Source: a virus
Lineage: Duplodnaviria; Caudoviricetes
IMG/VR virus record: IMGVR_UViG_2934356561_000002
Coordinates: 1 to 64,000 of that record
Length of the DNA stretch: 64,000 nt
Strand: one strand, 5' to 3'
Both the position numbers and the translations under genes were made by a program. Positions within the stretch are counted from its first letter, which is position 1. Each line of letters starts with the position of its first letter. Positions 9,431 through 25,533 of this stretch are shown here, piece after piece. The notes under the pieces are model-generated. The model had not been told where the DNA came from and did no database searches. It saw only the letters and a program-made list of their open reading frames with translations.

Positions 9431-9460
9431 TCGTAGGGCTCCTCCACGACCGGGTTCGCC

Positions 9461-9483
9461 ACTGTACTCGTACACGCGTTCGA
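9461..9483 (-). promoter_or_regulatory. Actinobacterial LexA (SOS) box overlapping the rep promoter
   Basis: TCGTAC-ACGC-GTTCGA (1 mismatch to TCGAAC-N4-GTTCGA) next to minus-strand -10 TACAGT. Confidence 0.65.
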
Positions 9484-9671
9484 ACGTGTCATGCGGGGTG
9501 TTCGTGTCGCCATGAGTTTGCTGGCACGGGATGCCGCTGGTTGTGGGGGACTTTTGCGGCGAATCAGGCGTTCGGGCGTGCGGAAGCTGACAAGCGGTGT
9601 GCGCGTACGGCACTATGTACCTGCTTTCCTCGTGATGGCGGGCACGCAAAGGGCCCGGTGGTGAGGTGAGT

Positions 9672-11062: not shown

Positions 11063-11430
11063 GCGAGGAGTGAAGTAGTGGTGACAGGGCCCTGCTGCGT
11101 CGGCGGTGTGATGTTCACGCCGGAACGCGGGGTCCTACTGTCGTCAGGGGAAGATCCCCGGGTATTCTTCTTCATGGCCACTTCCACTTGTGTCGCAACG
11201 GGTGAGTGGTCCGGCCCCGCTCCCCGGTGTGCAACCACCTGGGACTCCAGCGGGGCCTTTCCAATGTCTTGGTGGCTCCGTTCGACCGAACCCACTTCTG
11301 AGTAGTCGTCTGGTGCCAGGCCCAGCCTACTCGTTCGGGTATCCACTTGTCTCTCCTCTGGCTGATCGTGTCATTGATCGGACTTGTCATCAGATAGGCA
11401 GCTCATCGCACGACTGTGCGGGCGACGATC

Positions 11431-11473
11431 TCTGTCCTATAAAAACTCACACCAAGTAACAGGATCTTGCTCG
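11431..11473. repeat. 43-bp inverted repeat, left copy (candidate recombination site)
   Basis: TCTGTCCTATAAAAACTCACACCAAGTAACAGGATCTTGCTCG; reverse complement matches 25491-25533 at 41/43. Confidence 0.9.
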
Positions 11474-11489
11474 GGTGCCCGGTACCCCT

Positions 11490-11906
11490 TCAAGAAGCCC
11501 TAGCCAGCAAAAAGGAAGTAGACGACTTGGGCTCGGTCCGGATTTCGTGGACCTGCCCCACCGCCCCGGGCTGGCCGTCACGCTCTGCGGGTTGGGCGGC
11601 GGCCCGTCGCGCGGCGCGCCCTTGGGTGGCGGCGGTGCAGCACACATCACACCGGCACTGAAGGCAGTTGTACCGGTACTCGCCGTGCGCCACGTTCCCC
11701 TGCCGGACCTTCTTCCCCGCGGCCTTCGCGTCGGCGAGTGCCTGGCCGAAGGCGGGGTCGGTGCGGGCGTGGCGGGGCGGGACGTTGTGGTGGATGCCCG
11801 CGGTGGTGGCCGCGTCGGCGAGGTTCATGCCGGTGGCGACGGCGTCGAGGTACCGGTGCCGCTTCTTCTCGTCGAACAGGTCCCGGTTGGTGGCGGTGTA
11901 CGTCAC
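11490..11906 (-). CDS. HTH plus Cys-cluster protein
   Basis: YLDAVATGMNLADAATTAGI HTH; HGEYRYNCLQCRCDVC. Confidence 0.7.
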   Translation of the reverse strand: MTYTATNRDLFDEKKRHRYLDAVATGMNLADAATTAGIHHNVPPRHARTDPAFGQALADAKAAGKKVRQGNVAHGEYRYNCLQCRCDVCCTAATQGRAARRAAAQPAERDGQPGAVGQVHEIRTEPKSSTSFLLARAS

Positions 11907-12346
11907 GGGTGGCCCCCGTCCCGCACACCCGTGGCGTGGTCGAGGGGTTCGTCGTCGGCGGGGTGCTGGGGCGGGTGAATGGCGGCGGATCGTGCGGCCA
12001 AGTTGCCCATGGCCGTGTACCCGGCGTTCGCCAGTTCGGCGCGGAGCCGGTTCAGGGCGTCGGGGGTCCAGGAGGGGCGGACGGAAAGTTGGCCAGCGCG
12101 GAACCCGACCGGGAGGGCGGCCTGCCACACGGCCTCGACCATGACGGGGTCGTAGTCCGGGAACAGGTCGGCGGGCAACCTGCGCACGGTGCCCGCGGCT
12201 TCGAGGGTTCCGGCGGCGATGAGTCCGGCGAGGTAGTCCCCGGAGGACTGGCACCGGTTGGCGAGGGCCTGATCGTCGGCGGCGGCAGGCCTGGCCGTGA
12301 GGCCCGTGACGGGGGCGGCCGGGGCTGGGGTGTGGTGAGTGGTCAT
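11903..12346 (-). CDS. Hypothetical protein
   Basis: 147 aa, coupled on both sides. Confidence 0.65.
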   Translation of the reverse strand: MTTHHTPAPAAPVTGLTARPAAADDQALANRCQSSGDYLAGLIAAGTLEAAGTVRRLPADLFPDYDPVMVEAVWQAALPVGFRAGQLSVRPSWTPDALNRLRAELANAGYTAMGNLAARSAAIHPPQHPADDEPLDHATGVRDGGHP

Positions 12347-13263
12347 GCGGCAGGCTCCAGCACGGTGGTCGGGACGAAGGGGATACGGGGCTGCAGGGCG
12401 GTCCGTACAGCGGTGAGGCGGCGCAGCCGGGCACGGCGCGGTGAGGGGCCGGAGCCGGGCCCGCGGCCTGCTGGTGGGCGGCCGGGACGGGCCGGGAGGC
12501 GGCACCCGCGGGGAATGTCTTCCAGGCCGGGCAGGATCAGCTGGACGGGGCGGCCGGGGGCGATGCGGCGCTGCCGTGCCCCGTCCGTCGTCGGCGCCGC
12601 CGCGTACGCCCACGGCCCGTCGGGGCGTATCCGGGTCGAGCGCGGCAACAGCCCCTGGTCGACGGCCGCGGCGAGGAGCTGGTCGCGGGTCGCGCGCTCC
12701 TTGTCGAGGCCGAGCATCGTCACCAAGGTGGACCGGTGCCAGTTTGCGGACCGCAGATCCATCCCGGCCCGGTACGCGACCAGTTCGGGGTCGGTCTCGC
12801 GGGCAAGGGCGACCAGGACGGCGCGCTTCTGCCGGGTGCGGCCTTCGGGCAGGTCCCGGACCACGGCGGCCGGCTCCTCAGCGGCGGGGATGGTGCCGAC
12901 CGTCGCGGCGTGCCGGCGGGCGATCAGAGCGCGGTGCCGGGTCAGGGCCAGCTCCCCGCCCATGACGCCCTCGGGCTCGACCAGGTGCTCGACACCTTCC
13001 GCGTCGACCACGGTCGTGTTCGCGTACGTACGGCACAGGGGCAGGACCGGGCACCGGGCGCAGATCTGCCTGGCGACGCGCTCCCGGTCGAAGCGGACCT
13101 TCTGCGGCTCCGCCCCGTCACCGGTGTACGGGCCCCACGCGTCCAGAGTCACGTCCGGGTCCGCGGCCGACACGGCCGGGTCGTCCTCGTCGGGGGCGCA
13201 CCCTCGGTACTTGTAGTGCCGGGCATCGACGAGCTGCTGCCGGGCGCTGATCGGGTCCGTCAT
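12343..13263 (-). CDS. WhiB-family Fe-S regulator fused to a LuxR-like HTH
   Basis: C...CARCPVLPLC...GVMGG WhiB motif; C-terminal RQKRAVLVALARE...MLGL...LLAAAVDQGLL. Confidence 0.75.
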   Translation of the reverse strand: MTDPISARQQLVDARHYKYRGCAPDEDDPAVSAADPDVTLDAWGPYTGDGAEPQKVRFDRERVARQICARCPVLPLCRTYANTTVVDAEGVEHLVEPEGVMGGELALTRHRALIARRHAATVGTIPAAEEPAAVVRDLPEGRTRQKRAVLVALARETDPELVAYRAGMDLRSANWHRSTLVTMLGLDKERATRDQLLAAAVDQGLLPRSTRIRPDGPWAYAAAPTTDGARQRRIAPGRPVQLILPGLEDIPRGCRLPARPGRPPAGRGPGSGPSPRRARLRRLTAVRTALQPRIPFVPTTVLEPAA

Positions 13264-13559
13264 GGTGTGTCCCCCTCCTGCGGGTTGTGGCGTGTGGTGC
13301 GGGCGTACTCGGCGGTGATGATCTGTTCGGCCTCGGCGAGGAGCTGCTCGCGCAGCTCGGCGGCCCGGAGCTCGGCGACCGCGGCCCGGATCCGGCGCTT
13401 GAAGGCTTCCGTGTCGCGGTGGTGGGCGGCCTCCGCCAGACGGACCGTGGCCCGCTCCAGCCGGATCAGACGCTGCAGGGCGCGCAGCCGCCACCACGCC
13501 AGGCTGGCGCCTATGGTCAGGGCGGCGAACCCCGCCACGGCTATCGGGTACACGGACAT
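13260..13559 (-). CDS. Small membrane-anchored coiled-coil protein
   Basis: N-terminal TM helix; RBS GAGGAGG. Confidence 0.7.
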   Translation of the reverse strand: MSVYPIAVAGFAALTIGASLAWWRLRALQRLIRLERATVRLAEAAHHRDTEAFKRRIRAAVAELRAAELREQLLAEAEQIITAEYARTTRHNPQEGDTP

Positions 13560-13650
13560 CGCCTCCTCCTCATCGGGGCGCCAGGAACTACGGGTGGGGA
13601 AGACTGCGGCCGGCCCCGAATGGGACCGGCCGGTGGATCAGGCTGAGGAA

Positions 13651-15390
13651 CTACGCGGCGTCCGCGAGTACACGGTCCTGCGGGCTGTGAATGACGGCTC
13701 GCAGCCGGGTTCCGATCCAGGTGCCGACCCGCGGGCTCACTGCGTTGCCGAATCCGTCGACCTGGTTGCGGTCGGATCCCCAGACGGTGAAGGTGCCCTG
13801 GTAGTCGCCGAAGTCGACGTCGAAGCCGCACCCACGGCCGATCTCATACGCCCGCATCATGCGGAAGTAGCAGTCCTCAAGGGGCAGGTTGGCAAGCGAG
13901 GCCCGCCACTGCGCCATGAGCAGCGCCGTCGTGTCGTGAGCGGTGAGGGTGCCAAGCGGGTCGGTCAGTGGGTGCGGTGCGGTCTCGGTCCCAGTGGGGC
14001 CGTTCTGCTTGTACCAGCCGGCGGCCGTGAGCAGCCCCGGGATTTGATCCGAGGTGACCGTCGGCATCGCCTGGCTGTGCATCGTGGACAGCGTGTTCTG
14101 CCGGTACGGAATGACCCCCGAGGACACAATGGCAAGCGTTTCCGACCCGACCTGCGTAGGCAGCGGCTCCACGGCCGAGCGCGGGCCGCCCTGGTAGTTG
14201 TCCACGGCGAGCGCCATGGACGGCGTCACGAGCTCCGTTGTGGCGGACTGGTCCCACAGCGGTGGGGTAAGCGGCCCGGTCGACAGGATCGATGTTTCCT
14301 GCTGGCTGGTCTGCGTCGACATTGGCTGCCACGGATGCCGCTCCGAGCCGTGCACCGCCTTCGCTGGCATGAGCACCGCGGGGAATTCACCGAACCGCTG
14401 ACGGCAGCGCTCCGCGCGGGCCATCGTCGACCGCGCGAGCGGCCCGACGAAGCCGTCCTTGAACGTCTTGGTCGGCTTGTCGCCGATGCGGGTGCCCAGG
14501 TCGGACAGGTCGAGTGCGGCCAGCGACGGCGTCATCGGAGGGACGACCGGGCGGCGGCAGCTGGGGCACCGGTACTCGTACTGCTTGCCGTAGCGCACCG
14601 ACCCGGTCGGCGGAATGCCCGTCTTCCATGTCCACACCGCCTCGACGTCCTTGTCGCAGTGGTGGCAGCGCGACACCGGGCGGTGCTCTAGGTCGGGGGC
14701 GGGCAGGGACTTGTCCCAGAACGCGATGTACAGACGGTCGCGGGACTGCGGCACGCCGAAGAACTGCGAGTTCAGGTACAGCACCTTGTGCCGGTAGTTC
14801 AGCAGGTCGAACCGCTTGAGCCACCACCGGTACGTGGTTCCGTCGCCGACCTTCGGCCGTCCAGGGATGGCCGGCCCCCACGACGTCAGCTCGGTGGTGC
14901 ACTCGATCAGGATCAGCCGCGGGCGGTGCTGGGCTGCGTAGTGCAGGACACAATTCGCGGTGGCCCGGTCCCGCTCCGACTTCGTGACGCGGGCCTCGTA
15001 GTCGGGGTCCTCCAGCTCGAACAGTGTCCCGCCCTGCTCGTAGGCCTTGACTGTGTTGGCCTGCGAGTGGTTCGTGCACGTCACGCCCGCGACCAGCAGG
15101 TCCGCGGCGGGCAGGTCGCGGGCGGAGTGGTAGTCCGCCTCGTCGGGGTTGATCAGGTCAGCGATCCAGTGTTCGGCCTCGGGGTGGTTCGCCTCGTGGA
15201 CCTCGACCTTGTAGCTGTTGTGGTTCGCCGCCATGATCGTGGTGAACCCAGCTCGCTTGATGCCCTCGGTGAGGCCGCCGAAGCCGGAGAACAGGTCGAC
15301 AGCGACCAGGTCGTCGTGCCTGAACCGGCGACGCCTTACGGCCGGCCGGTGCGTGGCGGTGCGGGTCTGCATCGTGGTGGCACGGGCCAT
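13651..15390 (-). CDS. Orphan C5-cytosine DNA methyltransferase
   Basis: DLFSGFGG (I), GVTCTNHS (IV variant), QSRDR (VIII), GFGNAVSP (X). Confidence 0.88.
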   Translation of the reverse strand: MARATTMQTRTATHRPAVRRRRFRHDDLVAVDLFSGFGGLTEGIKRAGFTTIMAANHNSYKVEVHEANHPEAEHWIADLINPDEADYHSARDLPAADLLVAGVTCTNHSQANTVKAYEQGGTLFELEDPDYEARVTKSERDRATANCVLHYAAQHRPRLILIECTTELTSWGPAIPGRPKVGDGTTYRWWLKRFDLLNYRHKVLYLNSQFFGVPQSRDRLYIAFWDKSLPAPDLEHRPVSRCHHCDKDVEAVWTWKTGIPPTGSVRYGKQYEYRCPSCRRPVVPPMTPSLAALDLSDLGTRIGDKPTKTFKDGFVGPLARSTMARAERCRQRFGEFPAVLMPAKAVHGSERHPWQPMSTQTSQQETSILSTGPLTPPLWDQSATTELVTPSMALAVDNYQGGPRSAVEPLPTQVGSETLAIVSSGVIPYRQNTLSTMHSQAMPTVTSDQIPGLLTAAGWYKQNGPTGTETAPHPLTDPLGTLTAHDTTALLMAQWRASLANLPLEDCYFRMMRAYEIGRGCGFDVDFGDYQGTFTVWGSDRNQVDGFGNAVSPRVGTWIGTRLRAVIHSPQDRVLADAA

Positions 15391-16550
15391 CAGGCGGCGC
15401 TCCTCTCCGGGGCGTGGGCGTTCTGCTCGGCCTGTCGGGTCTGCTCCTTGAGTTCGGCGATGCGGGCGGTGACCATGTCGCCGAACGGCACCCAGCCGCC
15501 GACCGGGCCCTCGACCTCTCGTAGCAGCTGGTTGCGGCGGCCAGCCTCGGCCACGTCCTTCGTGAGCTCGGTGAAGTCGTTCCAGTGCCGCTGCACCTGG
15601 AGCATCAGCTGGTCGATCGGGTCGATACTGCTTGGCTGCTGTTCCCCGGCCGACGACTGCTCAGTGGCGGACCCTCGGAGTTGAGCGATGCGGGTGTTCA
15701 GCATGTCCTCGACTCGGGTCGGGACCTTCGGCTCACCAAACGGCACTTGCTCGTTCAGCAGGGCATTCGCGTGAGCCGCCGCCAGTACATCCACAGTGGC
15801 GTCGAGGCTGTTCCACCCCTCGCGGACGCGCGTCAGGAACTTGGTGAGTACCAGTTCCTGCGTCTGCGCGGGCGACATTGCGGCGGGAGCCTGTTCCGGC
15901 ACCGTGACCGTGTGGCTGTCGTTCTGGGCCTCCTGCGCGCTGGGCTCTGGGCGTACGGGCGGGTCTTCCGGCTCCGGCTCCGGCGGCTGTGCCTGCGGCT
16001 TCCACTCCTGCGGCGGGTGAGCAGCGGAGAAGACGACCACCGGGTCCTGTGACCCGTCGTTGTACAGCGACAGGCCGAACTGGTCACCGAGGTTCACCGC
16101 GCACCGCTTCAACGCCTGAGAGAACGCGGTCTTCATCGCCATGTCGTGCGCGTCGCCGAGTGAGGGCTGGTTCACGGAGTCGCCGGCTGCGCCGTCGTCG
16201 AAGTACGCGATCGCGGTACCGGTGCTGTTCTTGAGGATGAGGCGGACCTGGGCGCGGTAGACCACCGTCCAGCGTGACCGCTCGCCCTGCTTCGTCTCGC
16301 GTTCGGACACCAGGTCCAGGCCGATGGTCTCGATGTCGAAGCCGCCGAAGCCGAAGATGCGGATCAGCTGGCGGCGGACGTCCCACGCTTCGAGGTGAGA
16401 CATGCCGCGCAGGTTCCGGACCCGGTTGCCATTGATGCCCCCGTGAAGCATCCGCAGCTGGTACGGGGAGAACCGGGCGGTCTGATTTTGGGTGTGCGAG
16501 GTGGGGCCCTCCGCCGTGTTGCTGGCGGGGGCCTCGACGGCCGTAGCCAT
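15390..16550 (-). CDS. Sak/Rad52-family single-strand annealing protein
   Basis: SHLEAWDVRRQLIRIFGFGG...AMKTAFSQALKRCAVNLGDQFGLSLY. Confidence 0.88.
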   Translation of the reverse strand: MATAVEAPASNTAEGPTSHTQNQTARFSPYQLRMLHGGINGNRVRNLRGMSHLEAWDVRRQLIRIFGFGGFDIETIGLDLVSERETKQGERSRWTVVYRAQVRLILKNSTGTAIAYFDDGAAGDSVNQPSLGDAHDMAMKTAFSQALKRCAVNLGDQFGLSLYNDGSQDPVVVFSAAHPPQEWKPQAQPPEPEPEDPPVRPEPSAQEAQNDSHTVTVPEQAPAAMSPAQTQELVLTKFLTRVREGWNSLDATVDVLAAAHANALLNEQVPFGEPKVPTRVEDMLNTRIAQLRGSATEQSSAGEQQPSSIDPIDQLMLQVQRHWNDFTELTKDVAEAGRRNQLLREVEGPVGGWVPFGDMVTARIAELKEQTRQAEQNAHAPERSAA

Positions 16551-16633
16551 GAGGTCTCCAGCGATGTGAGGTTGTTGCTGCTATGCGGGGTGGGCCCGGT
16601 TGTCGGCGTCCAGGCCCACCCCGGCAGGGATGA

Positions 16634-17485
16634 CTACTCGGACGCGCCCGGATCGACGTCGTACTTGTGCAGCAGGTACGCGATGGCGATCTGCAGGGGG
16701 CGCAGGCCCTTGGCGGACGCCACCTGCACGTAAAGGTCGTCGTTCGGATTGATCCGCAGATTCACCAGGTCCGACGTGTCCGACCACACCGGGGCGTCCG
16801 GATTGAACTCGCCGGCGAGGTACTTCTGGAAGCCCTCGTTGACGTCATCGGTGACCATGCGGCCCGCGGCCTTCGCCCGGGAACGGATCTGATCCCGCAC
16901 GGCGCGCGGAACCTGCGGGTTGCGTACCGAGCCGGTCACCGGCAGGGTGTCTGCGCTGCCGGTCGCGTACGGGCCGACCTTGTACTTGTGCATCAGGAAG
17001 TCCGCCGCCACGTTCGCAGCCGACAGCCCCGCCCGCTCCTCGACCTGCTGACGCAGCGAAAGAACCGGGGTCACGTTGAGGGTCGCCTTCTCCGCAGCGC
17101 CGTACCGGGCCCGTGCCGGCTTGCGCGGGCTGTACTCGCCGGCCAGAACCATGCGGAAGCCTTCGTTGACGTCGTCGGTGACCGTTGTGCCAGCGGCAGC
17201 CGCAGCGGCCACGATCTGGTCCCGGGCCGTCTTGCTGAGCAGGAGCTGCAGGTTGGGGCCGGGGGTCCCTTCCGGGTCCGTGGCGCGCAGGGCTGCCCAG
17301 CCCCTGGGGGCGAGCACCGTGTCGATCCATGTGGCCAGGGCGGGTGAGTCGACTTCCCGGAGGCGTTCGGATGCGGCGACGAGTCCGGTGCGCAGTTCGC
17401 GGTTGGTGGGCACGGGGCGGGGTCCTCTCGGCGAGCGCCGGTCGGACCTGGGGTTCGGCGGGCGCTTCTTGGGGGCGTTGGCCAC
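16634..17485 (-). CDS. Tandem-duplicated ribbon-helix-helix-like DNA-binding protein (candidate repressor)
   Basis: Internal repeat RDQI..AG..VTDDVNEGF..LAGE..P x2; RBS AAAGGAGG before GTG at 17485. Confidence 0.65.
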   Translation of the reverse strand: MANAPKKRPPNPRSDRRSPRGPRPVPTNRELRTGLVAASERLREVDSPALATWIDTVLAPRGWAALRATDPEGTPGPNLQLLLSKTARDQIVAAAAAAGTTVTDDVNEGFRMVLAGEYSPRKPARARYGAAEKATLNVTPVLSLRQQVEERAGLSAANVAADFLMHKYKVGPYATGSADTLPVTGSVRNPQVPRAVRDQIRSRAKAAGRMVTDDVNEGFQKYLAGEFNPDAPVWSDTSDLVNLRINPNDDLYVQVASAKGLRPLQIAIAYLLHKYDVDPGASE

Positions 17486-17644
17486 GCCAGTTTCCTCCTT
17501 TTCGATTGCGGGCGCCATGTTCGTTGGGGTAGCGCCTGCCGTCGGGGCTGTCCCGACAACAGGAACTCTACCCGCATTCCCATTGTGCTTACAAGGGGAG
17601 TGTGGGATGGTTGTCACACATCAACCACACAGCGGGGGCACCGA

Positions 17645-18043
17645 ATGCGACACACGAACCAGCAGACGACCACCAAGACCCTCGCCGACCTGTACCGCAC
17701 CATCGACCGCCAGCACGCGGTGACCATCACCTATCTCGACGAGAACGGTGACGAGACCCTGCGGACGATCGAGCCGTATGACATCCGCACCACCAAGTCC
17801 GGCCGCATCGAAGTCCGCGCCATGTGCCGACTCCGGGGCGAAGCGCGCGGCTTCCTGCTTCACCGGATCGTGGCCTACACCTGCCACAGGATCGCGTTCG
17901 TCATCGACCGACCGGAGGCAACAACCCCCGTCGGGCGCGTCATCGTGGTCCGTAGCCCCGCACAGCTCATCGCCCGCGAACTCGGCCGCGACTACCTCCC
18001 CCGCACCGCCGTCACCTGCGACACCGCAGCACTTGCCGCCTAG
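17645..18043 (+). CDS. Stand-alone WYL-domain protein
   Basis: VTITYLDENGDETLRTIEPY...AMCRLRGEARGFLLHRI. Confidence 0.85.
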   Translation: MRHTNQQTTTKTLADLYRTIDRQHAVTITYLDENGDETLRTIEPYDIRTTKSGRIEVRAMCRLRGEARGFLLHRIVAYTCHRIAFVIDRPEATTPVGRVIVVRSPAQLIARELGRDYLPRTAVTCDTAALAA

Positions 18044-18052
18044 GAGGACCCC

Positions 18053-18364
18053 ATGCCTGTACGCCATGGAAAGGGCATCCCTGTGAACGCGTCCCGCCGA
18101 CCCACCCCTGCCCAGCGTGTCTTGATGGGATACACCGCCTCTGGAGAGGTGGCCCGCATCCACCACGCCCGCGCAGGCTGGGCGGTCCGGCTCACCACGG
18201 TGCGCAGCAGAGGCGCCGGCGGAGGCCTTGGCCGCAAGGTGGACGTCGCTGTTCGCGCCCTGGCCGCGTCCGGCTGGGCCTACGAGGGCGCCCACGACCG
18301 CCGCACCGGTTATGTCTGGCACCTCACCGATGCAGGGCGCTCGCACCTTGAGAGTGATGGGTAG
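18053..18364 (+). CDS. Small winged-HTH-like protein
   Basis: RBS AGGAGG; C-terminal WHLTDAGRSHL wing motif. Confidence 0.6.
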   Translation: MPVRHGKGIPVNASRRPTPAQRVLMGYTASGEVARIHHARAGWAVRLTTVRSRGAGGGLGRKVDVAVRALAASGWAYEGAHDRRTGYVWHLTDAGRSHLESDG

Positions 18365-18446
18365 TAGCGGCAGCCTTCGCAACGCACCGCAGACCGAACG
18401 GAAGTGGTTCGGCCGTCCGCAAAAGCCCTGACCCCAGGAACACCGA

Positions 18447-18522
18447 AGGCCACTGCCCCGAACCGCGGGTAGTGGCCTCAACCTGCCGGGCACACCCGTC
18501 AGATGACGGCGATTGTAGTCCG
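18447..18522 (-). ncRNA. Putative small structured RNA with its -10 box (copy B)
   Basis: TACAAT, conserved 5' stem-loop, then terminator-like hairpin AGGCCACTACCC...GGGCAGTGGCCT. Confidence 0.35.
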
Positions 18523-18563
18523 CGACCTCACCGCCCCGCCACCACTTCCAGGACACCGGACCC

Positions 18564-18770
18564 ATGGACCGAGACGATCGGAACCAGCAACAAGCCCTCA
18601 TCGGACCCCCGGACACCGGGTACCGGGCCCGCTACTGTCGGCGCTGCGGGAAGCCGCTCACCGCCGAAGGATCGCGTCGCCGAGGATTTGGGCCCGACTG
18701 TGACCCCACCAGCCGGCTACAACCCGCCGCCGCCCACCAGGTTGAGCAGGACACCCTTCCCGGCACCTGA
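18564..18770 (+). CDS. DUF6011-like zinc-finger protein
   Basis: CRRCGKPLTAEGSRRRGFGPDC. Confidence 0.75.
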   Translation: MDRDDRNQQQALIGPPDTGYRARYCRRCGKPLTAEGSRRRGFGPDCDPTSRLQPAAAHQVEQDTLPGT

Positions 18771-18816
18771 GCGCGCCCAGCTACTCTTACGCCTCCAACA
18801 GCAGGAGGGGGCAGCA

Positions 18817-19407
18817 GTGGAGTTGGCAGTTGGCATCGCCACCATCGTTGCGACGGTCATTGCTCTGTGGGCAGCCTGGGTCGCATGGTCGCAAGCCACG
18901 ATCGCCCGGGAGCAGGCGGAGATCGCGAAGGGCGAAGCAGATACCGCCAAGAAGCAGCTGCAGATCTCCATGGAGCAGCACCTGGAAGGCATGCGCCCGA
19001 AGTTCACAGCGACCAACGGGCCCATCACCTGGCTGGACGATTCGCCACACGTGGACATCACTCTGACGCAGACTGGCGGCGTACCTGTCGACCACGTCAC
19101 CATCAGTGCAAGCGGCCCGTACCTGGACGCCCTAAGCACGTACGGGGCGGACGGAATCACGTCTCACGGAGCGAACCCGAGCGTTCGTATCGACGGCATG
19201 AGCGCGGGAGCCGAGGCAAGGATCGTGGCGCACTTCGAGTATCGCCACGTCGCCCCGATTCGATTGGAGCTGATCCTGGACTCCAAAGCCATGCACAGCG
19301 ACCTGACATGGTCGCAGCCCGCATACGTGCTTGCCGAGCCTCAGCCGGAACAGCCACGTACTCCATCAGGGCCGCGCGCAGCCAGACGTCGAGCAGCGGG
19401 TTACTAG
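18817..19407 (+). CDS. Membrane-anchored accessory (moron-like) protein
   Basis: RBS GGAGG; N-terminal TM plus coiled coil; followed by hairpin 19419-19456. Confidence 0.7.
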   Translation: MELAVGIATIVATVIALWAAWVAWSQATIAREQAEIAKGEADTAKKQLQISMEQHLEGMRPKFTATNGPITWLDDSPHVDITLTQTGGVPVDHVTISASGPYLDALSTYGADGITSHGANPSVRIDGMSAGAEARIVAHFEYRHVAPIRLELILDSKAMHSDLTWSQPAYVLAEPQPEQPRTPSGPRAARRRAAGY

Positions 19408-19418
19408 GACCAGAAGAG

Positions 19419-19456
19419 GTGGCCCCGCAGAGCGTGCGACGGACCTGCGGGGCCAC
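19419..19456. terminator. Bidirectional terminator hairpin
   Basis: GTGGCCCCGCAG...CTGCGGGGCCAC between convergent genes. Confidence 0.6.
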
Positions 19457-19524
19457 ACGAGCACCGTCCTGTCAGGGCACCCACACCGACCGTACGAGCA
19501 CACGGCCCTGACCGCCCGTCGACA

Positions 19525-20607
19525 TCAGCCGGCCGGAGACTCCTCCAACGGCACCGCGGCCACGGAGCGCCGGATCTGCTCCATCGTCGTCGGCAACGGC
19601 TCCCACCCGTACTGCCCGGCCATCACCCAGTTCAACGCGGTGATGCCCCGCGCGTACGCCTGCCGCAACCCCTGCGGCCGTAGCGGCACCCCCGGCGGGC
19701 CGGCCTTCGACGGCACCAGCGATACCCACAACGCAGTCTTCGCACCCGTCAGCGGCAGCGACTCCACCAGCTGCTGCCGCACCTTCAACCAGCGGCGCAC
19801 CGCGACCTGTGAGCCCTCCCGCAGCGGGTACCACTCCACCTCCGGCAACGGCTCCAGCTCGGCAACCGCGGCCAGGACTCGCTGCCGGGTATCCTCCGAC
19901 ACTCGCTCCACCCAGCCACCCAGCACCGACCGGGCCGCCTCCGTCCCCACCTCCGCCAGAGCGGCGATCTCCTCGACCCGGTTCGGGGGCGCCTTCTGCT
20001 GCTGCCGGCGCACCGCCACCGCCGTCTCACCCGAGGTCAGATCCGACAGGGACTGCGCAGCCAACTCCCCGGACCGTGGTGCAGCGTCCAGCATCACCGC
20101 CACGATCGCAAGCAGCCGGGTGCGGTCCTCGAACGACAAGGCCGTACCGTCCCGCTCCAGCGGCCCCTGCCCGGCCAGATCCACCATCCCCCGGTACAGG
20201 GCATCCAGCGACCGGCCACCCACCGTGGCCTTCGGCTCCGGGTTCGCGACCGACGGCAGGCGCACCGTCTTTCCTGCGGGCAGCACCTCACGGGCTAGGA
20301 TCTTCAGGCAGTCCCGAACGATCCGCAGCGTCCACTCCGGCAACGGCTTCCCGACATCCTTCTGGGCGTGCCGCAACTGCCCGTCGACCGCGAGATCCCA
20401 GAACGCGCGCAGCGCAGCCCACGTGAACAATTGGGCCGCGGTCCGGGACGCCCGGCCCGGCATCTCATCCCGGCCTACCGCCCGGTCGAACATCCCGACC
20501 ACCATCCGCAGTTGCCGCAGCCGGCCCTCCGACACCCGCCCGGCCATGCCGTCGACCACCGCGGCGAGCTGCCGGACCGAGGGGGCGCTGTACTGCTTGG
20601 GGGTCAT
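19525..20607 (-). CDS. Tyrosine recombinase-like protein lacking the C-terminal catalytic motifs
   Basis: RTRLLAIVAVMLDAAPRSGEL box I; ends shortly after EQIRRS with no nucleophile Tyr. Confidence 0.7.
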   Translation of the reverse strand: MTPKQYSAPSVRQLAAVVDGMAGRVSEGRLRQLRMVVGMFDRAVGRDEMPGRASRTAAQLFTWAALRAFWDLAVDGQLRHAQKDVGKPLPEWTLRIVRDCLKILAREVLPAGKTVRLPSVANPEPKATVGGRSLDALYRGMVDLAGQGPLERDGTALSFEDRTRLLAIVAVMLDAAPRSGELAAQSLSDLTSGETAVAVRRQQQKAPPNRVEEIAALAEVGTEAARSVLGGWVERVSEDTRQRVLAAVAELEPLPEVEWYPLREGSQVAVRRWLKVRQQLVESLPLTGAKTALWVSLVPSKAGPPGVPLRPQGLRQAYARGITALNWVMAGQYGWEPLPTTMEQIRRSVAAVPLEESPAG

Positions 20608-21755
20608 GACGATTGCTCCTGCTGGGGCACTGCGGCCTTCCTCGCGATCTGCGTCAGCGGGTTCCGCTCACCCTGACTGTCCTCTTCGTCGATGTACCCG
20701 ATCAGGGCCTTCGACCGATCGTCCCATCCGCCGTGCCGGCCGATGTCCACGATGTCGGCCCCCGCGGCGCGGGCCGTCTTCACCAGGCCTCGACGCAGCG
20801 AGTGCGACGTCCACTTTCCTGGCATCCCCGTGCGGTGGATCGACCGGCTGACGACATCGGACGCGCCGTTGATGCTGATCCGCCCGGTGGGGTCACCAAT
20901 CGGTTTGCCTTCGCGGGTCATCTCGGCGCCCATGTATCCCCACTGGTCGATCCGCATGAACAGCGGCCCGGAGGTGTACCCCTCATGGGCGAGCGCCGCC
21001 ACCAGGGCCCGTACCGCAGTCACTGCGCACAGATCTGCATCGGGGTCCGGGACGACCTCGACAGACTGCCACTTCTTCCGCTTCTTCCGGTAGACCTTCA
21101 CCTTGAACCCGCCCTCCGGTAGGTCCGTAAAGTTGGCCGGCCAGTTCAGTGGAACGAGCTCGCTGCCGCGGGACCCGATGGCGTGCCCCAGCAACATGAG
21201 CGCAGCATCCCGCCTCCCGACGAGGGTGGTGCGGTCAAGGTGGACAAGCGCTTCACGGAGAACGTCTCGGTCGGCGGCCGTGGCCTTCTTCGGGGTGGCA
21301 GCCGGGTCTTGGGCGAGAGACAACTCCTTCCGGTACCCGGCGACGACCTTGCGTGCGCCCATAGTGTCCGGGGGCTCGTATCCGGCGGCCCGGTGCGATG
21401 AGCGGATCGACGCGATGATCCTGTCCATCGTCGCGGGACCGTACGGCTTCCCTGTCCGTTCGCGGGGTGTGCGCTTCAGGTACGACAGGTATGCGGTGAC
21501 GGTGTGCGGCGCGGCAGGCATGACACGGCGGCCTACCGTGGCGCACCATTCGGCGAAGCGCTCCATGTCACCTTCGTACGCCCGGCTGGTGTCGCGCGGG
21601 ATGCCAGCCTGAACGTCCTCCTGCGCTTCGGGCGGCAGCCACGCGTCTGGATCCTTATCGACCAGCGGAACGGCGGGAGTTCGGTCCTCCGGGATGGCAG
21701 GGAGTTGGTCCTCCTCGACCAGCTCCGCGTCCACCACGTCGTCATGCTCGGTCAC
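20604..21755 (-). CDS. Cre-like tyrosine recombinase
   Basis: RDAALMLLG..IGSRGSEL; HSLRRG; GRHGGW; LIGYID (R-H-R-W-Y intact). Confidence 0.92.
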   Translation of the reverse strand: MTEHDDVVDAELVEEDQLPAIPEDRTPAVPLVDKDPDAWLPPEAQEDVQAGIPRDTSRAYEGDMERFAEWCATVGRRVMPAAPHTVTAYLSYLKRTPRERTGKPYGPATMDRIIASIRSSHRAAGYEPPDTMGARKVVAGYRKELSLAQDPAATPKKATAADRDVLREALVHLDRTTLVGRRDAALMLLGHAIGSRGSELVPLNWPANFTDLPEGGFKVKVYRKKRKKWQSVEVVPDPDADLCAVTAVRALVAALAHEGYTSGPLFMRIDQWGYMGAEMTREGKPIGDPTGRISINGASDVVSRSIHRTGMPGKWTSHSLRRGLVKTARAAGADIVDIGRHGGWDDRSKALIGYIDEEDSQGERNPLTQIARKAAVPQQEQSS

Positions 21756-22003
21756 CGTGAGACCCGATCAGCCGTAGCCCACCGCAGCCGCAGCTCCATC
21801 GTGCGAAGACTGACGAGCCAGTGGTAGAGCTCCAACTCGTCTCGGCAGAGTCGGGAAAGCGGCCGCCCCGTGTGCTCGTCCCGTACACCCCACCTCTTCA
21901 TACCTAGACGGGTTCGTTTCGTGAAGCGCACGTACCTTTCCGGATGACAGTCGTCTCCGCACTCGGTCAAGGCCTTCTCGCTTGCTTTGATCTTTGGCTC
22001 CAT
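21752..22003 (-). CDS. Small basic protein coupled to the recombinase
   Basis: 83 aa; GTGA overlap with the recombinase start. Confidence 0.55.
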   Translation of the reverse strand: MEPKIKASEKALTECGDDCHPERYVRFTKRTRLGMKRWGVRDEHTGRPLSRLCRDELELYHWLVSLRTMELRLRWATADRVSR

Positions 22004-22026
22004 AGAAGGAACATTATCTGGAGCCA
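21995..22026. promoter_or_regulatory. 13-6-13 imperfect palindrome (lox/dif-like site or operator)
   Basis: TGGCTCCATAGAA-GGAACA-TTATCTGGAGCCA, arms 11/13 symmetric. Confidence 0.5.
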
Positions 22027-22098
22027 CGACGCTCGCTGCCCCCGAAACGACGATGACCCCGCACGGTGGCGAGGTCATCAAGGCAGATCAGTCTCTGG

Positions 22099-22326
22099 CT
22101 AGCGCTCGTTCAGAATGTCCTCGATCTTGCCCGAGGTGATGGCACCGTCCGGGATCTTCGACCACTCGGCAACGGGCATGGGCGCCGCCCACGAGGGGAA
22201 GGACGGGACGTGAACTTTAGCGGCCCGCCTCCGGTCGCGGATCCAGTACCCGATGAACGTGCCGACGAAGGCTCCGACCAGAGCGGCGACGCCGGTGAGG
22301 ATCGCGGTGAGGTCCATGCTCATCAT
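22099..22326 (-). CDS. Small single-TM protein
   Basis: LTAILTGVAALVGAFVGTFIGYWI followed by basic residues; start uncertain. Confidence 0.55.
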   Translation of the reverse strand: MMSMDLTAILTGVAALVGAFVGTFIGYWIRDRRRAAKVHVPSFPSWAAPMPVAEWSKIPDGAITSGKIEDILNER

Positions 22327-22423
22327 GATGGCAGACAGCACTGACATCCGGCGTGGCATCTCATGTGAGCCTATCAAGCATCAGAAAGCGGAGGGCTCCG
22401 CCGTTTCTTCGCTGTGCGCGATC

Positions 22424-23080
22424 CTAAGCTTCGGTCCCCTTCGCGGCGTTCCGCTGCTCCCGCTCCAGACGGCTCTTCTTGAGCGCCGCCATCCGTGCCG
22501 GCCCCTGGTACACCTCCTCCAGGATCTCGTCCATCAGCGCGACAATAGCTTCGGCATCCTCGGGCGGCATCGGCTCGTCCGCCAAGTCCCCGTGCGCAAT
22601 CTCGTTGCCGCCCTCACGGATCTCGTGTGCTAGTTCCCTCGTGATTTCCCGGATGAGACTCTGCTTGTGCATCTCGTCGATCTTGGCCACCAATGGACCC
22701 TTGACGATGCCGTGGTCCTTGGCCGTGGCTTCGACAACCGCGCGGGCGAGAGCAACTGCTCCCCGGTAGGCAGATATCGACAGGCAGGCGTGAGCCTCGC
22801 TCGCGGCCGCCGCAATCTGTTGCGGCACATCATCGAAGGAGCGGCGCCGAATGGTCTTCGGCTCCCACTCCAGAACGGGCTCCCTGGGCATCTCCGACTT
22901 CGGGTTGGTGAAGTTGGATTTACGCCAGATGGTTCCGATGGACAGGCGTAGGCACGTTTCGTTCGAACACTGAAAGGTTGCCGTATAGACGTACCCGGCC
23001 TGCGCAGGGACCGACTTTGGATCCGTTTGCATTGCCATGTGGGTGCGGTCGCCGCACCATCCGCAGATCGTACTTGCCAT
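22424..23080 (-). CDS. DUF4145 (HEPN-like) protein with N-terminal Zn ribbon
   Basis: CGWC...C; EAHACLSISAYRGAVALARAVVE...REGGNEIAH. Confidence 0.82.
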   Translation of the reverse strand: MASTICGWCGDRTHMAMQTDPKSVPAQAGYVYTATFQCSNETCLRLSIGTIWRKSNFTNPKSEMPREPVLEWEPKTIRRRSFDDVPQQIAAAASEAHACLSISAYRGAVALARAVVEATAKDHGIVKGPLVAKIDEMHKQSLIREITRELAHEIREGGNEIAHGDLADEPMPPEDAEAIVALMDEILEEVYQGPARMAALKKSRLEREQRNAAKGTEA

Positions 23081-23124
23081 GTGCGCAGGGTACTTGAGGC
23101 TGACGCACACACGATCTGCAAGGA

Positions 23125-23289
23125 CTACGGGTACAGCAGCCGGGACAGCGGTGCGGGTCGGGCGCCCGGCTCGTGCGGGCGGGCCGGCAGGTCGGTGGTG
23201 ACGTCCGGCGGTGGTTCAGCCGGGGGCTGGGTGTTGTTGTCGGGGCTGGTGATGGCCTCGACCTCGCGGGGGTCCAGGTTGGTGCTCAT
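23125..23289 (-). CDS. Small Pro-rich leaderless protein (54 aa)
   Basis: MSTNLDPREVEAITSP...LSRLLYP; late-type promoter ends 6 nt before ATG. Confidence 0.45.
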   Translation of the reverse strand: MSTNLDPREVEAITSPDNNTQPPAEPPPDVTTDLPARPHEPGARPAPLSRLLYP

Positions 23290-23334
23290 GAGTCAAGAGT
23301 GCGCCTGGTGGCGGAAGTTACTGCCCCGGGTCGC

Positions 23335-23370
23335 TTGTGTAGCGTTCGCGATGCGTGTAGCGTATGCATC
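23335..23370 (+). promoter_or_regulatory. Leaderless promoter of the cassette array with direct-repeat operator
   Basis: TTGTGT-N17-TAGCGT-N7-ATG; TGTAGCGT at 23338 and 23356. Confidence 0.65.
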
Positions 23371-23814
23371 ATGAAGGATAAGAAGAACTGGTACGCCGAG
23401 TTCGGCAGCGCCAGCAACAAGCGCGAGGACGCCGTCTTCGACGTCCACCCCGACGTGGCCACCGCCTTCGCCGACGCCATCCGCAACCAGGCCAACGTCC
23501 AGGGCCCCCACCACGCCCAGGACTTCGACGACCTGACCGCCACCATCGCCCAGACCTCCCGCCTCATCCAGCATCTGGAGGCCTTCCGCGAACTGGCCAT
23601 CGTCGCCGCAGACCGCACCAGCCCCCACGCCGACCGCAAGGCCATCGCCATCGCCGCCGCCATGCCGCCCTCCCGGCTCTACCGCGTTCTGGAGAAGCAC
23701 GGACGGCCGAAGAACCGCAGCAAGGCCTACGACGAGGCCGTCCACGAAGCGCTCGACAAGGGCCTCAAGGGCGACGAGATGTGGGACCACGCCAACCGGA
23801 CCACCGAGCAGTGA
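23371..23814 (+). CDS. HTH protein, first gene of the cassette array
   Basis: DRKAIAIAAAMPPSRLYRVLEKHG HTH; ends NRTTEQ. Confidence 0.8.
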   Translation: MKDKKNWYAEFGSASNKREDAVFDVHPDVATAFADAIRNQANVQGPHHAQDFDDLTATIAQTSRLIQHLEAFRELAIVAADRTSPHADRKAIAIAAAMPPSRLYRVLEKHGRPKNRSKAYDEAVHEALDKGLKGDEMWDHANRTTEQ

Positions 23815-23825
23815 GGACCACGACC

Positions 23826-24032
23826 ATGCAGCAGTCAGACATCGAGTCGGTTCTGTGGGACTGCGTAACCGCACCCGACGATGACTCCAGCTACCTAGGC
23901 GACCAGACCTCTGGAATCAGCAAGCTTGCCGCGCTGATCGCCGAGCAGAACCGCCGAATCAACGAGCTGGAAGAGACGCTCGCGCGCATCACTGAACGGC
24001 CGTTCCCGCCCGACCGCACCGCCGAGCAGTGA
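23826..24032 (+). CDS. Cassette gene 2, 68-aa coiled-coil protein
   Basis: Starts and ends in junction repeats; ends DRTAEQ. Confidence 0.75.
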   Translation: MQQSDIESVLWDCVTAPDDDSSYLGDQTSGISKLAALIAEQNRRINELEETLARITERPFPPDRTAEQ

Positions 24033-24043
24033 GGACCACGACC

Positions 24044-24202
24044 ATGACCACCCCCGACGAACTTCGGGCACGCGCCACCGAGCTGGAGAGCCGCGTTCCG
24101 CCGGTGACCGCCGGGCCCCCCACCGACGACGAGCGGATGTGGCTGGAGAAGGCCGCAGCCCTCCGCGCCGAAGCGGACACCCTCGACGGCGCCGAGCAGT
24201 GA
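24044..24202 (+). CDS. Cassette gene 3, 52-aa helical protein (absent from the ORF track)
   Basis: MTTPDELRARATELESRVPPVTAGPPTDDERMWLEKAAALRAEADTLDGAEQ. Confidence 0.75.
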   Translation: MTTPDELRARATELESRVPPVTAGPPTDDERMWLEKAAALRAEADTLDGAEQ

Positions 24203-24213
24203 GGACCGCGAGC

Positions 24214-24447
24214 ATGTGGAACTGTGCGAACTGCGGCACTGAGAACCAGGAGCACGACGAGCACTGCCAGAACTGCGACACCTGGCGCAGCGAGCAGGAA
24301 GGCCCCGACGGACAGATCTGCGGTGACAGCTATGACCACGAGGTGGTCATCGACCACCGGGGGCCTGACGGAATCCAGTGGCATTGCGCTCGGGGAGAGT
24401 GCGGAGCCGAAGTCTGGGACCCTGCCCCGATCACCACCGAGAAGTGA
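24214..24447 (+). CDS. Cassette gene 4, RanBP2-like zinc-finger protein
   Basis: MWNCANCGTENQEHDEHCQNC; ends ITTEK. Confidence 0.75.
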   Translation: MWNCANCGTENQEHDEHCQNCDTWRSEQEGPDGQICGDSYDHEVVIDHRGPDGIQWHCARGECGAEVWDPAPITTEK

Positions 24448-24458
24448 GGACCACGACC

Positions 24459-24734
24459 ATGGCGCGATACACCGAGGGTCAGCGAGCCTTCCTGGCTGGC
24501 AATCCGAAGCCGAAGGGACCGAGCAAGCCGTGGCGTGTCCTGCTGTCTGAAGCAGGTGGATCAACCCGGCAGGACTTCCGATCCAGCCAAGCCGCGTACG
24601 AGCACGTCGTTGCCGAACGCCAGCGTGCCGAGTCTAGGGAATCCGAGACCGTCAGCATTCGTGTTCTCCAGTGGACCGATGGTGACTGGGCTCTGTATGA
24701 GCGCATCACTCCGAACCGAACCGCCCATCAGTAG
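24459..24734 (+). CDS. Cassette gene 5, 91-aa hypothetical protein
   Basis: Starts in junction repeat; ends NRTAHQ (degenerate half-junction). Confidence 0.75.
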   Translation: MARYTEGQRAFLAGNPKPKGPSKPWRVLLSEAGGSTRQDFRSSQAAYEHVVAERQRAESRESETVSIRVLQWTDGDWALYERITPNRTAHQ

Positions 24735-24745
24735 CCGCACAGCAC

Positions 24746-24782
24746 GGTGCCCGCGACCAAGGTCTAGTTGGTCGCGGGCACC
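24746..24782 (+). terminator. Perfect 15-bp hairpin closing the cassette array
   Basis: GGTGCCCGCGACCAA-N7-TTGGTCGCGGGCACC. Confidence 0.75.
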
Positions 24783-24937
24783 TGCGTGTCAGCCTACCGG
24801 TGGCCTCACCTGCGCGTACGTCCGTACCCGCACCCCCGGTTCGCCCGGTACCCGCCACACCTCCGACGGGCCCGACGTCGCCCACCGCTCACCCAGCTCC
24901 GCAACCGCGACGGCCGTCCAGACGAAGGGACTACCGG

Positions 24938-25276
24938 CTACCGCTCCCGCAGGTTGTACGGGCTGATCTCCTCGTACCGATCGTCGGACTCATCCCGGCC
25001 GAAGCTCTCCTCCCAACGCTCCGGCCAGTTCGCCGGGCCGCCGACCCGGAACCGATCATCTGCCCACCGGGGTTCCCCCACACAGAAGGCGTGCACCTGG
25101 GGCTGGTCGTCACCGCCCCGGCGGACGAACTCCTCGTCGTAGATGAGGAAGTGGCCCATGTCGTCGCGGTCCTCGCGGACTTCCTCCGGCAGGGTGACCA
25201 CCCGGGTCACCTTGTCGTCGTCGACGTCGACCTCAACCATCACCGGCATTACGTACCGGACCCACCGCTTCGCCAC
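24938..25276 (-). CDS. Acidic hypothetical protein
   Basis: VAKRWVRYVMPVMVEVDVDDD...; start uncertain. Confidence 0.6.
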   Translation of the reverse strand: MAKRWVRYVMPVMVEVDVDDDKVTRVVTLPEEVREDRDDMGHFLIYDEEFVRRGGDDQPQVHAFCVGEPRWADDRFRVGGPANWPERWEESFGRDESDDRYEEISPYNLRER

Positions 25277-25490
25277 CGCTGCCCTGCCCTTCATGTCACG
25301 TACTTCGGGCGGGACACTATCGGGATCAAGCCCCTCCACGGGACCAGGCCCCAGAGCATCACCCTCAGGTACACGACACCTGGCCGTAGCTATACGAGAA
25401 CCGGGCCGTACCGAGCTCCTGGCCAGCGGGTTGTTCACCAGGACGGGAAGCGGGTGACATACGAGAGGTGACGAGGCGGAGCGTTCAATG

Positions 25491-25533
25491 CGAGCAAGAT
25501 CATGTTACTTGGTGTGAATTTTTATAGGACAGA
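25491..25533. repeat. 43-bp inverted repeat, right copy
   Basis: CGAGCAAGATCATGTTACTTGGTGTGAATTTTTATAGGACAGA. Confidence 0.9.

Follow-up and report, generated by a model that had tools for sequence, protein, structure and literature searches.

In this study, we analysed a 64,000-nucleotide stretch of DNA (positions 1 to 64,000 of virus record IMGVR_UViG_2934356561_000002, hereafter the window) and found that a block of 14 kb within it is bracketed by two 43-bp sequences in inverted orientation, which form a real and conserved pair. The comparative evidence supported the view that these two sites are a functional, co-evolving pair tied to P0001, a protein encoded inside the block that has a tyrosine-recombinase fold with an inserted helix-turn-helix (HTH) of the LacI type. 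Judging from sequence covariation, P0001 probably binds both sites. The window has a GC content of about 68%, which is Streptomyces-like, and its 64 kb open a 92,016-bp record whose direct terminal repeats imply a circular element. The block region matched 64 Streptomyces plasmid records, and ZL12 was its sole match, a weak one (4% covered), in the phage collection. The close relatives are circular plasmids of 88-102 kb with virion, lysis, ParAB, Rep and DciA genes, and correspond to phage-plasmids of the pZL12/pSLE1 kind (PMC4487206).

A preliminary description of this sequence had reported a 43-bp inverted repeat, exact except at two positions, and our analysis confirmed it. The two arms of 43 nt each are complementary at 41 of 43 positions (95%) and make up the longest inverted repeat within the window, and the complete 92,016-bp record contains one forward and one reverse copy of the motif. 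A 39-nt pattern with up to three mismatches occurred at these two places only in the window and found matches in none of 100 shuffles. Scanning with a weight matrix derived from 60 family sites gave scores of 66.6 and 61.0 for the left and right copies; no other place exceeded -6.4, and 20 simulated sequences had maxima averaging -5.7. Sub-words of the motif did not recur elsewhere in the genome. Since neither the weight matrix nor the sub-word search revealed a third site, a dispersed operator was rejected. An att site of the tRNA type was also rejected, the window containing no tRNA gene. No guide or spacer match was found between the motif and the TnpB/array region, no match to the motif was found in the phage collection, and an exact 15-mer scan of viral contigs returned 49 single matches in unrelated contigs, which were taken as chance and left unused.

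Each copy lies just beyond the end of an operon, as had been described. The left copy begins 17 nt past the stop codon (11490) of the final gene of the leftward early operon, and the right copy begins 29 nt past the stop codon (25562) of the collagen-like final gene of the leftward late/lysis operon. Downstream, i.e., leftward, of the left copy are a leader, the DUF6221 gene and the genes of Rep, DciA and ParB, and downstream of the right copy are an unnamed open reading frame (ORF) and a truncated DUF6207 remnant. In the earlier parsing of each site into an asymmetric 11-8-11 core, the arms are not mutual inverted copies (an inverted match of about 6/11 when counted by eye), and the 43-bp motif has no lox-like dyad symmetry. 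Consensus promoter scans around both copies returned no promoter-like site, and the single terminator-like hairpin (11147) was no more than expected by chance. Relative to transcription the two copies point in opposite directions, for which reason a promoter or an intrinsic terminator was dropped as the single role of the motif. RNA folds of both copies on both strands were not stabler than shuffles (z from -1.32 to +1.78). It could be imagined that the complementary 43-nt 3' segments of the late and early transcripts pair with each other and trigger processing, given that the copies remain complementary within each element and that both RNA segments are predicted to be unstructured and accessible (z = 0.74 and 1.03). 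However, the differences between copies are not biased toward G:U pairs (15/43 compatible, 28/43 mismatches), and such pairing leaves unexplained the covariation with the HTH of P0001, the single sites of some plasmids and the half-sites beside stand-alone P0001 genes, all described below; we consider it extremely improbable.

Next to its uniqueness within the element, the pair is conserved among relatives. With 56 nt around the right copy as the query, 14 plasmid records were matched, nine with two places and five with one, and in all nine two-copy relatives (9/9) the copies are inverted and lie at the same two positions as in the window. Three more distant phage-plasmids carry an inverted variant pair at the same two positions, in which the outer blocks are unchanged (TGTCCTATA ... 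TAACGTGATCTTGC) and the centre is different. When the surroundings of P0001 homologues in species-representative genomes (39 loci) were submitted to an inverted-repeat search without a prior motif, such a pair ranked top in 22 of the 39. Thirty elements were then scored: the window itself, 19 of those 39 loci and 10 previously retrieved plasmids; L005 and L063 were excluded as the same records as L086 and L089, and L105, which has the pair, exceeded the limit of five mismatches. An equivalent inverted pair at the same two positions was present in 30/30 of the scored elements.

Comparison of the copies showed that the two sites evolve in concert. In 27 of the 30 elements, both copies have the same sequence at motif positions 14-28, a 15-nt core, and 16 distinct cores occur among the 30; positions 17-22 in particular vary among elements and agree within each element. 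Differences between the copies of one element concentrate at positions 10-13 and 29-33, and an 'AG' variant at positions 29-30 is confined to left copies (four elements). The family consensus consists of invariant TGTCC, TAA and GATC blocks flanking variable stretches. The right copy is conserved although both of its flanks vary and are near-random between most pairs of elements; the flank medians were 0.59 and 0.60 at the right copy and 0.66 and 0.71 at the left copy, on crude thresholds and with unrelated 80-mers already reaching 0.54. This conserved island between near-random flanks lends some support, as regards the right copy, to the earlier suggestion that the sites might be hotspots of cargo insertion. 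The right copies of L008 and of L063/L089, which have TATAACTTTT ahead of a type A core, join a left part as in L100 to the type A core and, on this composition, look like chimeric sites.

P0001 gave no integrase match in Pfam and only a weak match to the LacI HTH. Its AlphaFold2 model, based on an alignment of 32 sequences, had a predicted local distance difference test score of 84.6, and Foldseek matched it over the full length to XerA, Tn1549 Int, lambda Int and Cre with a probability of 1.00. With VIA-align, XerA, Cre and XerH gave Z scores of 10.9-11.9 (tyrosine recombinases, 10-12), phi3T SroF gave 10.2 and 9.9, and SPbeta YopR gave 8.1, while residues 209-255 matched the DNA-binding heads of the LacI family with a Z of about 7. 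At the level of sequence, P0001 itself matched no recombinase, and BLASTP against the second recombinase-like protein of the block, P0002, found nothing; hhalign against recombinases aligned box I only, with a probability of 0.17; and the profile of P0001 retrieved LacI heads (E 0.004-0.03) and box I of XerA (E 0.025) from PDB. Neither MrpR nor SroF was found when P0001 and its profile were searched against the sequences of solved structures, and the likeness to them is one of fold only. The P0001 family numbers roughly 240 members found. R178, G180, E181 and W335 are invariant in the 32 of them that were aligned and no tyrosine follows W335 in any of them; the late tyrosines vary (Y318, 27 Y/5 F; Y333, 20 Y/12 others), and the first His position, by inferred residue equivalence, is Q in 22 of the 32 sequences. 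Because no tyrosine follows W335 and the late tyrosines vary, P0001 is most likely non-catalytic. Of the "two tyrosine recombinases" previously ascribed to the block, P0002 has the full catalytic set, and P0001 has the fold without a conserved tyrosine nucleophile.

The evidence that ties P0001 to the motif comes mainly from its HTH. Residues 221-240, the recognition region of the HTH, are the most variable part of P0001, with a mean pairwise distance of 0.51 versus 0.19-0.37 elsewhere. Matches covering less than 60% of the query were dropped from the Mantel tests. In that of the HTH, from which L003 was excluded for its HTH-less allele, the HTH correlated with the core (r = 0.60, p = 0.0005, n = 29) and still did so when the rest of P0001 was controlled for (partial r = 0.51, p = 0.0005), whereas the rest of P0001 with the HTH controlled for gave r = 0.23 (p = 0.017). 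All 12 HTH-bearing elements with a type A core carry the HTH sequence GTEAARSVLGGW (in one of them GVEAARSVLGGW), the three single-site plasmids combine the type A HTH (GTEAARSVLGGW) with a type A site, and the four type B elements have a different HTH type in common. L091 provides a natural swap: its P0001 is 92% identical outside the HTH and 32% within it, and its core is changed at 8/19 positions in both copies.

Outside phage-plasmids, homologues of P0001 stand alone (L112, L097 and L106). A half-motif, ATAACRTGAYC, was found 61-415 nt upstream of the stand-alone P0001 gene, on the same strand, at 10 of 18 loci, and a second, direct copy follows the stop codon of the P0001 gene at four of those; over 705,423 nt and both strands there are 46 matches in all, most of them within known pairs. 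At L112, L113, L114 and L097, the gene is located between two direct copies of a sequence of about 20 nt that bears the half-motif. As for the genomic settings, the homologue at L112 lies alone between a DUF7822 gene and a methylmalonyl-CoA mutase gene, and those at L097 and L106 are found where an integrase would usually be, on the margin of an element that carries Prim-Pol and D5-type primase-helicase genes.

The preliminary description proposed that the recombinase pair flips the 14-kb block and thereby rewires operon read-through or replication, and the features that inspired this idea are clear. The inverted sites bracket a block that encodes an intact Cre-like recombinase, P0002; the gene of this protein directly precedes that of P0001, and P0002-type matches exist in 27 of the 30 elements (the other three have none, and other integrase annotations occur in some); and positions 17-22 vary among and match within elements, as a crossover region must. 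P0002 aligned with Cre of PDB over residues 66-361 (E = 1.6e-5) with its catalytic residues in register, and its match to Pfam Phage_integrase was below the cut-off. To judge the orientation of the block, markers outside it were used, P0001 being inside. The block was inverted in none of the 30 elements: in 25, the conserved leader follows the downstream copy as in the reference, and in the other five, a diverged leader occupies the same place and the outside flanks are coding on the P0001 strand, except that the downstream flank of L103 has no called gene. Reads were represented by Logan contigs of four runs. One 32-kb contig of the probable source run extends over 10500-26500, both junctions included, without any difference; the contigs of run X3 break at the motif and are uninformative. 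No strand-changing joint was reported in the four runs, a result from contigs only that could miss rare or transient inversion, and inversion limited to lytic cells would likewise escape assemblies. As far as these data reach, a single orientation was found in reads and relatives.

Nor do the sites follow the recombinase. The P0002 alleles of some relatives are 58-100% identical to that of the window and those of others 26-30%, type A sites accompany both groups, and no correlation was seen between P0002 allele and motif (Mantel r = 0.02, p = 0.38, n = 27), so that allele swaps are without effect on the motif type and the data do not support P0002 as the enzyme that acts on the pair. When 19300-23300 was scanned in a simple way for inverted repeats, no lox-like palindrome appeared, although a weakly symmetric site could escape such a scan. 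Further points against an invertible switch are that the site lacks a dyad (although positions 17-22 would also fit a crossover region in a site with unlike arms), that the 'AG' variant occurs in left copies only, and that P0001 lacks the nucleophile. We regard such a switch as very unlikely; the idea, attractive as it was, is unsupported and has been removed. The associated proposal of fork reversal and amplification depends on inversion and is unsupported with it. The P0001 gene, directly downstream of the swapped P0002 cassettes, stays 84-96% identical. Since P0002 alleles are swapped while P0001 remains steady, the boundary of the two genes is a recurrent mosaic junction.

The left copy marks the upstream edge of the leader of the replication/partition operon. 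The stretch of about 370 nt that separates the left copy from the next gene is conserved in 16/16 aligned replicons and contains a GC-rich hairpin with a variable interior that is kept in all 16; a search of Rfam with 9600-11700 (E up to 1) gave no match for the leader. A small ORF of the leader (11059-11346, minus strand) encodes 95 residues from GTG 11346, or 38 from ATG 11175, and its stop codon overlaps the GTG start of the DUF6221 gene. GTG 11346 is preceded by a ribosome-binding site of the GGAG type, and the C-terminal part of the product (...ITP.T...GPVTTT...) is conserved in the 16 replicons. This ORF could encode a leader peptide or serve as an attenuator of the rep/par operon.

The same setting recurs in the single-copy plasmids, which are larger and non-phage (three of five examined). 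In these three, about 390 bp separate the site from a small gene, behind which come an HTH Rep gene and ParAB; the site has the same polarity as the left copy of the window, and the Rep of the window has 76% protein identity to theirs. Coming from the rep side, the homology that phage-plasmids share with non-phage plasmids extends into the motif, where it ends at or shortly past the inner end. By blastn, CP130724 and the window share essentially only Rep (80%), the motif with the leader (76%), the P0001 gene (88%) and a few short pieces; tblastx was disregarded, being swamped by composition matches at high GC. In the non-phage plasmids, no recombinase is present next to P0001, and the only P0002-like gene is 31% identical and about 18-21 kb away. 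Rep itself was rejected as the binder, as the Rep of L004 is just 30% identical and type A sites are retained there. Strains NBC_01238 (CP130724 + CP130725) and NBC_01240 (CP108498 + CP108500) each contain a phage-plasmid and a larger non-phage plasmid, and the co-resident plasmids have a common Rep family, a type A site and a type A P0001, which raises the question of cross-talk or incompatibility between them. Two other stretches of the window match CP130724, namely about 100-135 nt in or near the DciA gene (7708-7843), which match three separate places with 82-89% identity, and 4481-4698, adjoining the par genes; both could be repeats of the iteron or parS type.

These comparisons bear on two explanations that involve the plasmid backbone. 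In the first, the motifs would be recombination sites without inversion, P0001 serving as the recognition subunit of a heteromeric, Xer-like recombinase together with the upstream catalytic enzyme, for multimer resolution or for module exchange between co-resident replicons. The translational coupling of the recombinase and P0001 genes in phage-plasmids fits this proposal, as do the location of the left site, plasmid resolution sites often being near the rep/par module, the stop of phage-plasmid/non-phage homology at or just beyond the motif, the turnover of right-copy flanks up to the motif edges, the coexistence of both plasmid kinds with the same site type in NBC_01238 and NBC_01240, and the direct half-site repeats around some stand-alone P0001 genes. 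On the other side, homology breaks at the outer edges of the motif and not at its centre, the non-phage plasmids have no recombinase beside P0001, catalytic alleles 27% identical would all need to accept the same arm 1, and resolution leaves a second, inverted site unexplained; we consider the proposal unlikely. In the second, the asymmetric sites bound by P0001 would control replication, either as polar fork barriers in a trap like Tus/Ter or through handcuffing that limits initiation. The putative origin-proximal module is just outside the left copy and a rightward fork would stop at the right copy, a geometry that would presumably have the long leftward late operon copied co-directionally; moreover, the non-phage plasmids have their single site beside rep with the same polarity, and Rep, site and P0001 are common to both plasmid kinds. 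However, Rep does not track the motif (the L004 case), and P0001 is broken in one single-site plasmid; we consider replication control distinctly unlikely.

Our proposed reading is that the two sites, each asymmetric, form a matched pair at which P0001 docks. The protein would grip the conserved outer blocks (TGTCCTA... and ...TAAC..GATC) with its recombinase-like clamp and read the variable 15-nt core with its inserted HTH, and binding would proceed without strand exchange. If the HTH reads the core, both copies must change together when the HTH changes. At the two operon junctions, the bound sites would then serve as boundaries or control elements: the left one would gate early-operon transcription into the leader, rep and par genes, and the right one would gate late/lysis-operon transcription into the accessory block. 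The two could possibly be held together as an inert synapse. A docking pair with such a regulatory or boundary role and no recombination is what the comparative sequence data tentatively suggest, and a transcriptional gate or roadblock at operon junctions is our first choice for the role of the predicted binding. That P0001 is also present on non-phage plasmids speaks for a role in plasmid maintenance or as a boundary rather than for a classical lysogeny repressor. A bolder version, in which inert P0001, directed by its fast-evolving HTH, clamps both sites into a permanent lox-like synapse that never undergoes strand exchange and loops out the 14-kb early/accessory block, or into a polar fork trap, is improbable. 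If it were true, replication of the plasmid would be tied to the phage life cycle, any co-resident plasmid with the same site would be a cross-talk partner, and in the case of a fork trap the late operon of more than 38 kb would always be replicated co-directionally.

Several observations weigh against the docking of P0001 at these sites. The HTHs of L100 and L104 are fairly similar and their cores are different. L003 retains type A sites with a P0001 allele that has no HTH, and the P0001 homologue of the single-site plasmid CP108650 is split by a frameshift while its site is intact; these two cases imply that the pair of site and P0001 is dispensable for plasmid survival. The loss of the nucleophile is inferred from the lack of a conserved late tyrosine, the C-terminus being unaligned to any solved recombinase. 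There are two sites only and neither is at an obvious promoter, unlike the dispersed, promoter-proximal SPBRE sites of SPbeta, and their opposite facing relative to transcription means that they cannot both be one promoter. The related elements are non-independent, so that the Mantel p-values overstate a signal that comes from a handful of independent switches (L091, the type B clade and several deeper types). The motif is also tracked by other backbone genes: r is 0.61 for the final early gene, which is tightly linked to the left copy, 0.51 for the WhiB-like gene and 0.50 for the second early gene, so that linkage contributes to the motif-P0001 signal. Together with L003 and CP108650, which keep their sites without an intact HTH-bearing P0001, this correlation is what would be expected if another protein of the host or the backbone, e.g., the product of the final early gene, were the binder and P0001 covaried by linkage. 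Against such a binder, the covariation is concentrated in the HTH once the rest of P0001 is controlled for, the single-site plasmids keep P0001 but have none of the early genes, and half-sites accompany stand-alone P0001 genes in unrelated contexts; we give it a small probability. With regard to the HTH-less allele itself, the first 65 or so residues of the L003 protein (CP109494, 11557-12765) are nearly identical to those of the window, the middle is foreign and the tail is new and Cys-rich, a 21-residue remnant of the old P0001 C-terminus (86% identical) is located just downstream, and a 276-residue protein of about five HTH-like repeats is encoded upstream of the integrase; from this composition, the allele looks like a recent mosaic.

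The features of the window discussed here are collected in Table 1. The 109-residue ORF upstream of P0002 has a homologue in just 1/15 relatives. In the right part of the block, 23770-24461 contains four copies of a 27-nt junction of stop codon, ribosome-binding site and start codon (...GAGCAGTGAGGACCACGACCATG) that link a row of small rightward genes, and this row terminates at a 36-nt hairpin (24725-24803). The DUF6207 remnant (24792-24908, minus strand) comprises the final 39 codons only, which match the L004 protein at 100% identity; it is separated from the right copy by an unrelated ORF (about 25290-24938), and in relatives an intact DUF6207 gene directly follows the right copy.

Table 1. 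Positions of the two sites and of the genes around them in the window
Feature	Position	Strand	Remarks
DciA-family gene	7297..8088	-	Downstream of Rep; Pfam DciA, E = 8.3e-10
HTH Rep-like initiator candidate	8099..9649	-	HTH matches below Pfam cut-offs
DUF6221 gene	10613..11062	-	First named gene past leader; Pfam, E = 7e-11
Conserved leader	11059..11430	-	Starts at left copy; alignment of 16 replicons including 3 non-phage plasmids
Left copy	11431..11473	+	Arm 1 (TGTCCTATA...) outward to rep; arm 2 (...TAAC..GATC) into block
Final early-operon gene	11490..11906	-	138 residues; no family; annotated homologues in relatives
Rest of early operon within block	12343..17617	-	WhiB-like gene and other genes (Pfam)
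C5 cytosine methyltransferase	13651..15390	-	Early operon (Pfam)
Rad52-family gene	15390..16550	-	Early operon (Pfam)
Gene of no named family	16634..17617	-	Early operon
WYL-domain gene	17585..18043	+	Divergent from early operon; Pfam WYL, E = 2.5e-10
P0001	19525..20607	-	360 residues; tyrosine-recombinase fold; LacI-type HTH inserted at about residues 209-255; candidate motif binder
P0002	20604..21755	-	383 residues; Cre-like tyrosine recombinase; R, HxxR, W, Y; stop overlaps P0001 start
Small ORF	21752..22081	-	109 residues; overlaps P0002 start; no family match; coding status uncertain
Right copy	25491..25533	-	Inverted; 29 nt past stop of final late/lysis-operon gene
Collagen-like final gene of late/lysis operon	25562..26197	-	Pfam Collagen, E = 1.4e-6; annotation of relatives

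Phage-plasmids of the pZL12 type are common in Streptomyces, with dozens of replicons of about 90 kb found, and their control circuits are almost unstudied. The present analysis adds a conserved cis-trans pair, i.e., an HTH-bearing, recombinase-derived protein together with two long sites, one heading the replication/partition operon and one closing the lysis operon. In listings of the literature on Streptomyces phage-plasmids, inverted repeats and inactive tyrosine recombinases, we found no prior account of the P0001-site pair, although it may have been published elsewhere. The 16 core variants with their matching HTH variants would provide a ready set of apparently distinct protein-site pairs.

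Several known systems resemble parts of this arrangement. The fim switch and Flp/FRT of the 2-micron plasmid also have inverted sites that bracket a segment with recombinase-type genes, and both orientations are expected in populations and relatives of such systems; here, by contrast, inversion was seen in 0/30 elements, the sites lack a dyad and the co-varying protein lacks the nucleophile. In the pdif/Xer modules of Acinetobacter plasmids, short inverted sites bound a variable block and homology ends at the sites, and the present elements are alike in having inverted recombinase-type sites around a variable block where plasmid homology ends. They differ in having one block rather than a series of modules, breaks at the motif edges, and a content that varies gene by gene with no whole-block exchange seen. 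The Tus/Ter and RTP/Ter fork traps and the handcuffing of P1 incA iterons rely on asymmetric protein-binding sites near the origin, as would the inverted asymmetric sites here and the single site beside rep in single-site plasmids, but no homology to Tus or RTP was found, and Rep does not track the site. Cre/loxP of P1 is close in that Cre is the best solved relative of P0002, with the catalytic residues aligned, and that the element, being a phage-plasmid, presumably has a need for multimer resolution. Unlike loxP, however, the 43-bp motif has no dyad-symmetric arms and does not track the Cre-like allele, and its copies form an inverted pair 4.9-8 kb from the P0002 gene.

The closest parallels come from Bacillus prophages. 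MrpR/YopR of SPbeta, a protein of recombinase fold that no longer works as a recombinase, binds the repeated SPBRE as a master repressor; it retains the Lys and Tyr residues and has lost the Arg and His residues, and SPBRE is a 15-bp motif derived from nine ChAP-seq peaks (PMC10516654). SroF of phi3T binds DNA via an integrase-like fold (bioRxiv 10.1101/2025.11.27.690993). P0001 shares with both the tyrosine-recombinase fold (Z 8.1 for YopR, 10.2 and 9.9 for SroF against the P0001 model), the probable loss of recombinase function and, as predicted, the binding of a sequence repeated in its own element. There are several differences. The residue patterns are unlike, P0001 keeping both Arg positions and the Trp without the Tyr and MrpR keeping the Lys and Tyr with the Arg and His residues lost, and in place of many dispersed promoter sites the P0001 system has exactly two long (about 36-43 bp) inverted sites at operon ends. 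P0001 also differs from these proteins in its extra inserted LacI-type HTH and in its host element, a Streptomyces phage-plasmid, with homologues on non-phage plasmids as well. The P0001 system extends the reuse of the integrase fold in DNA-binding regulators from Bacillus prophages to actinobacterial plasmids, and its HTH insertion, which appears to determine the specificity, is an architecture new to this kind of protein.

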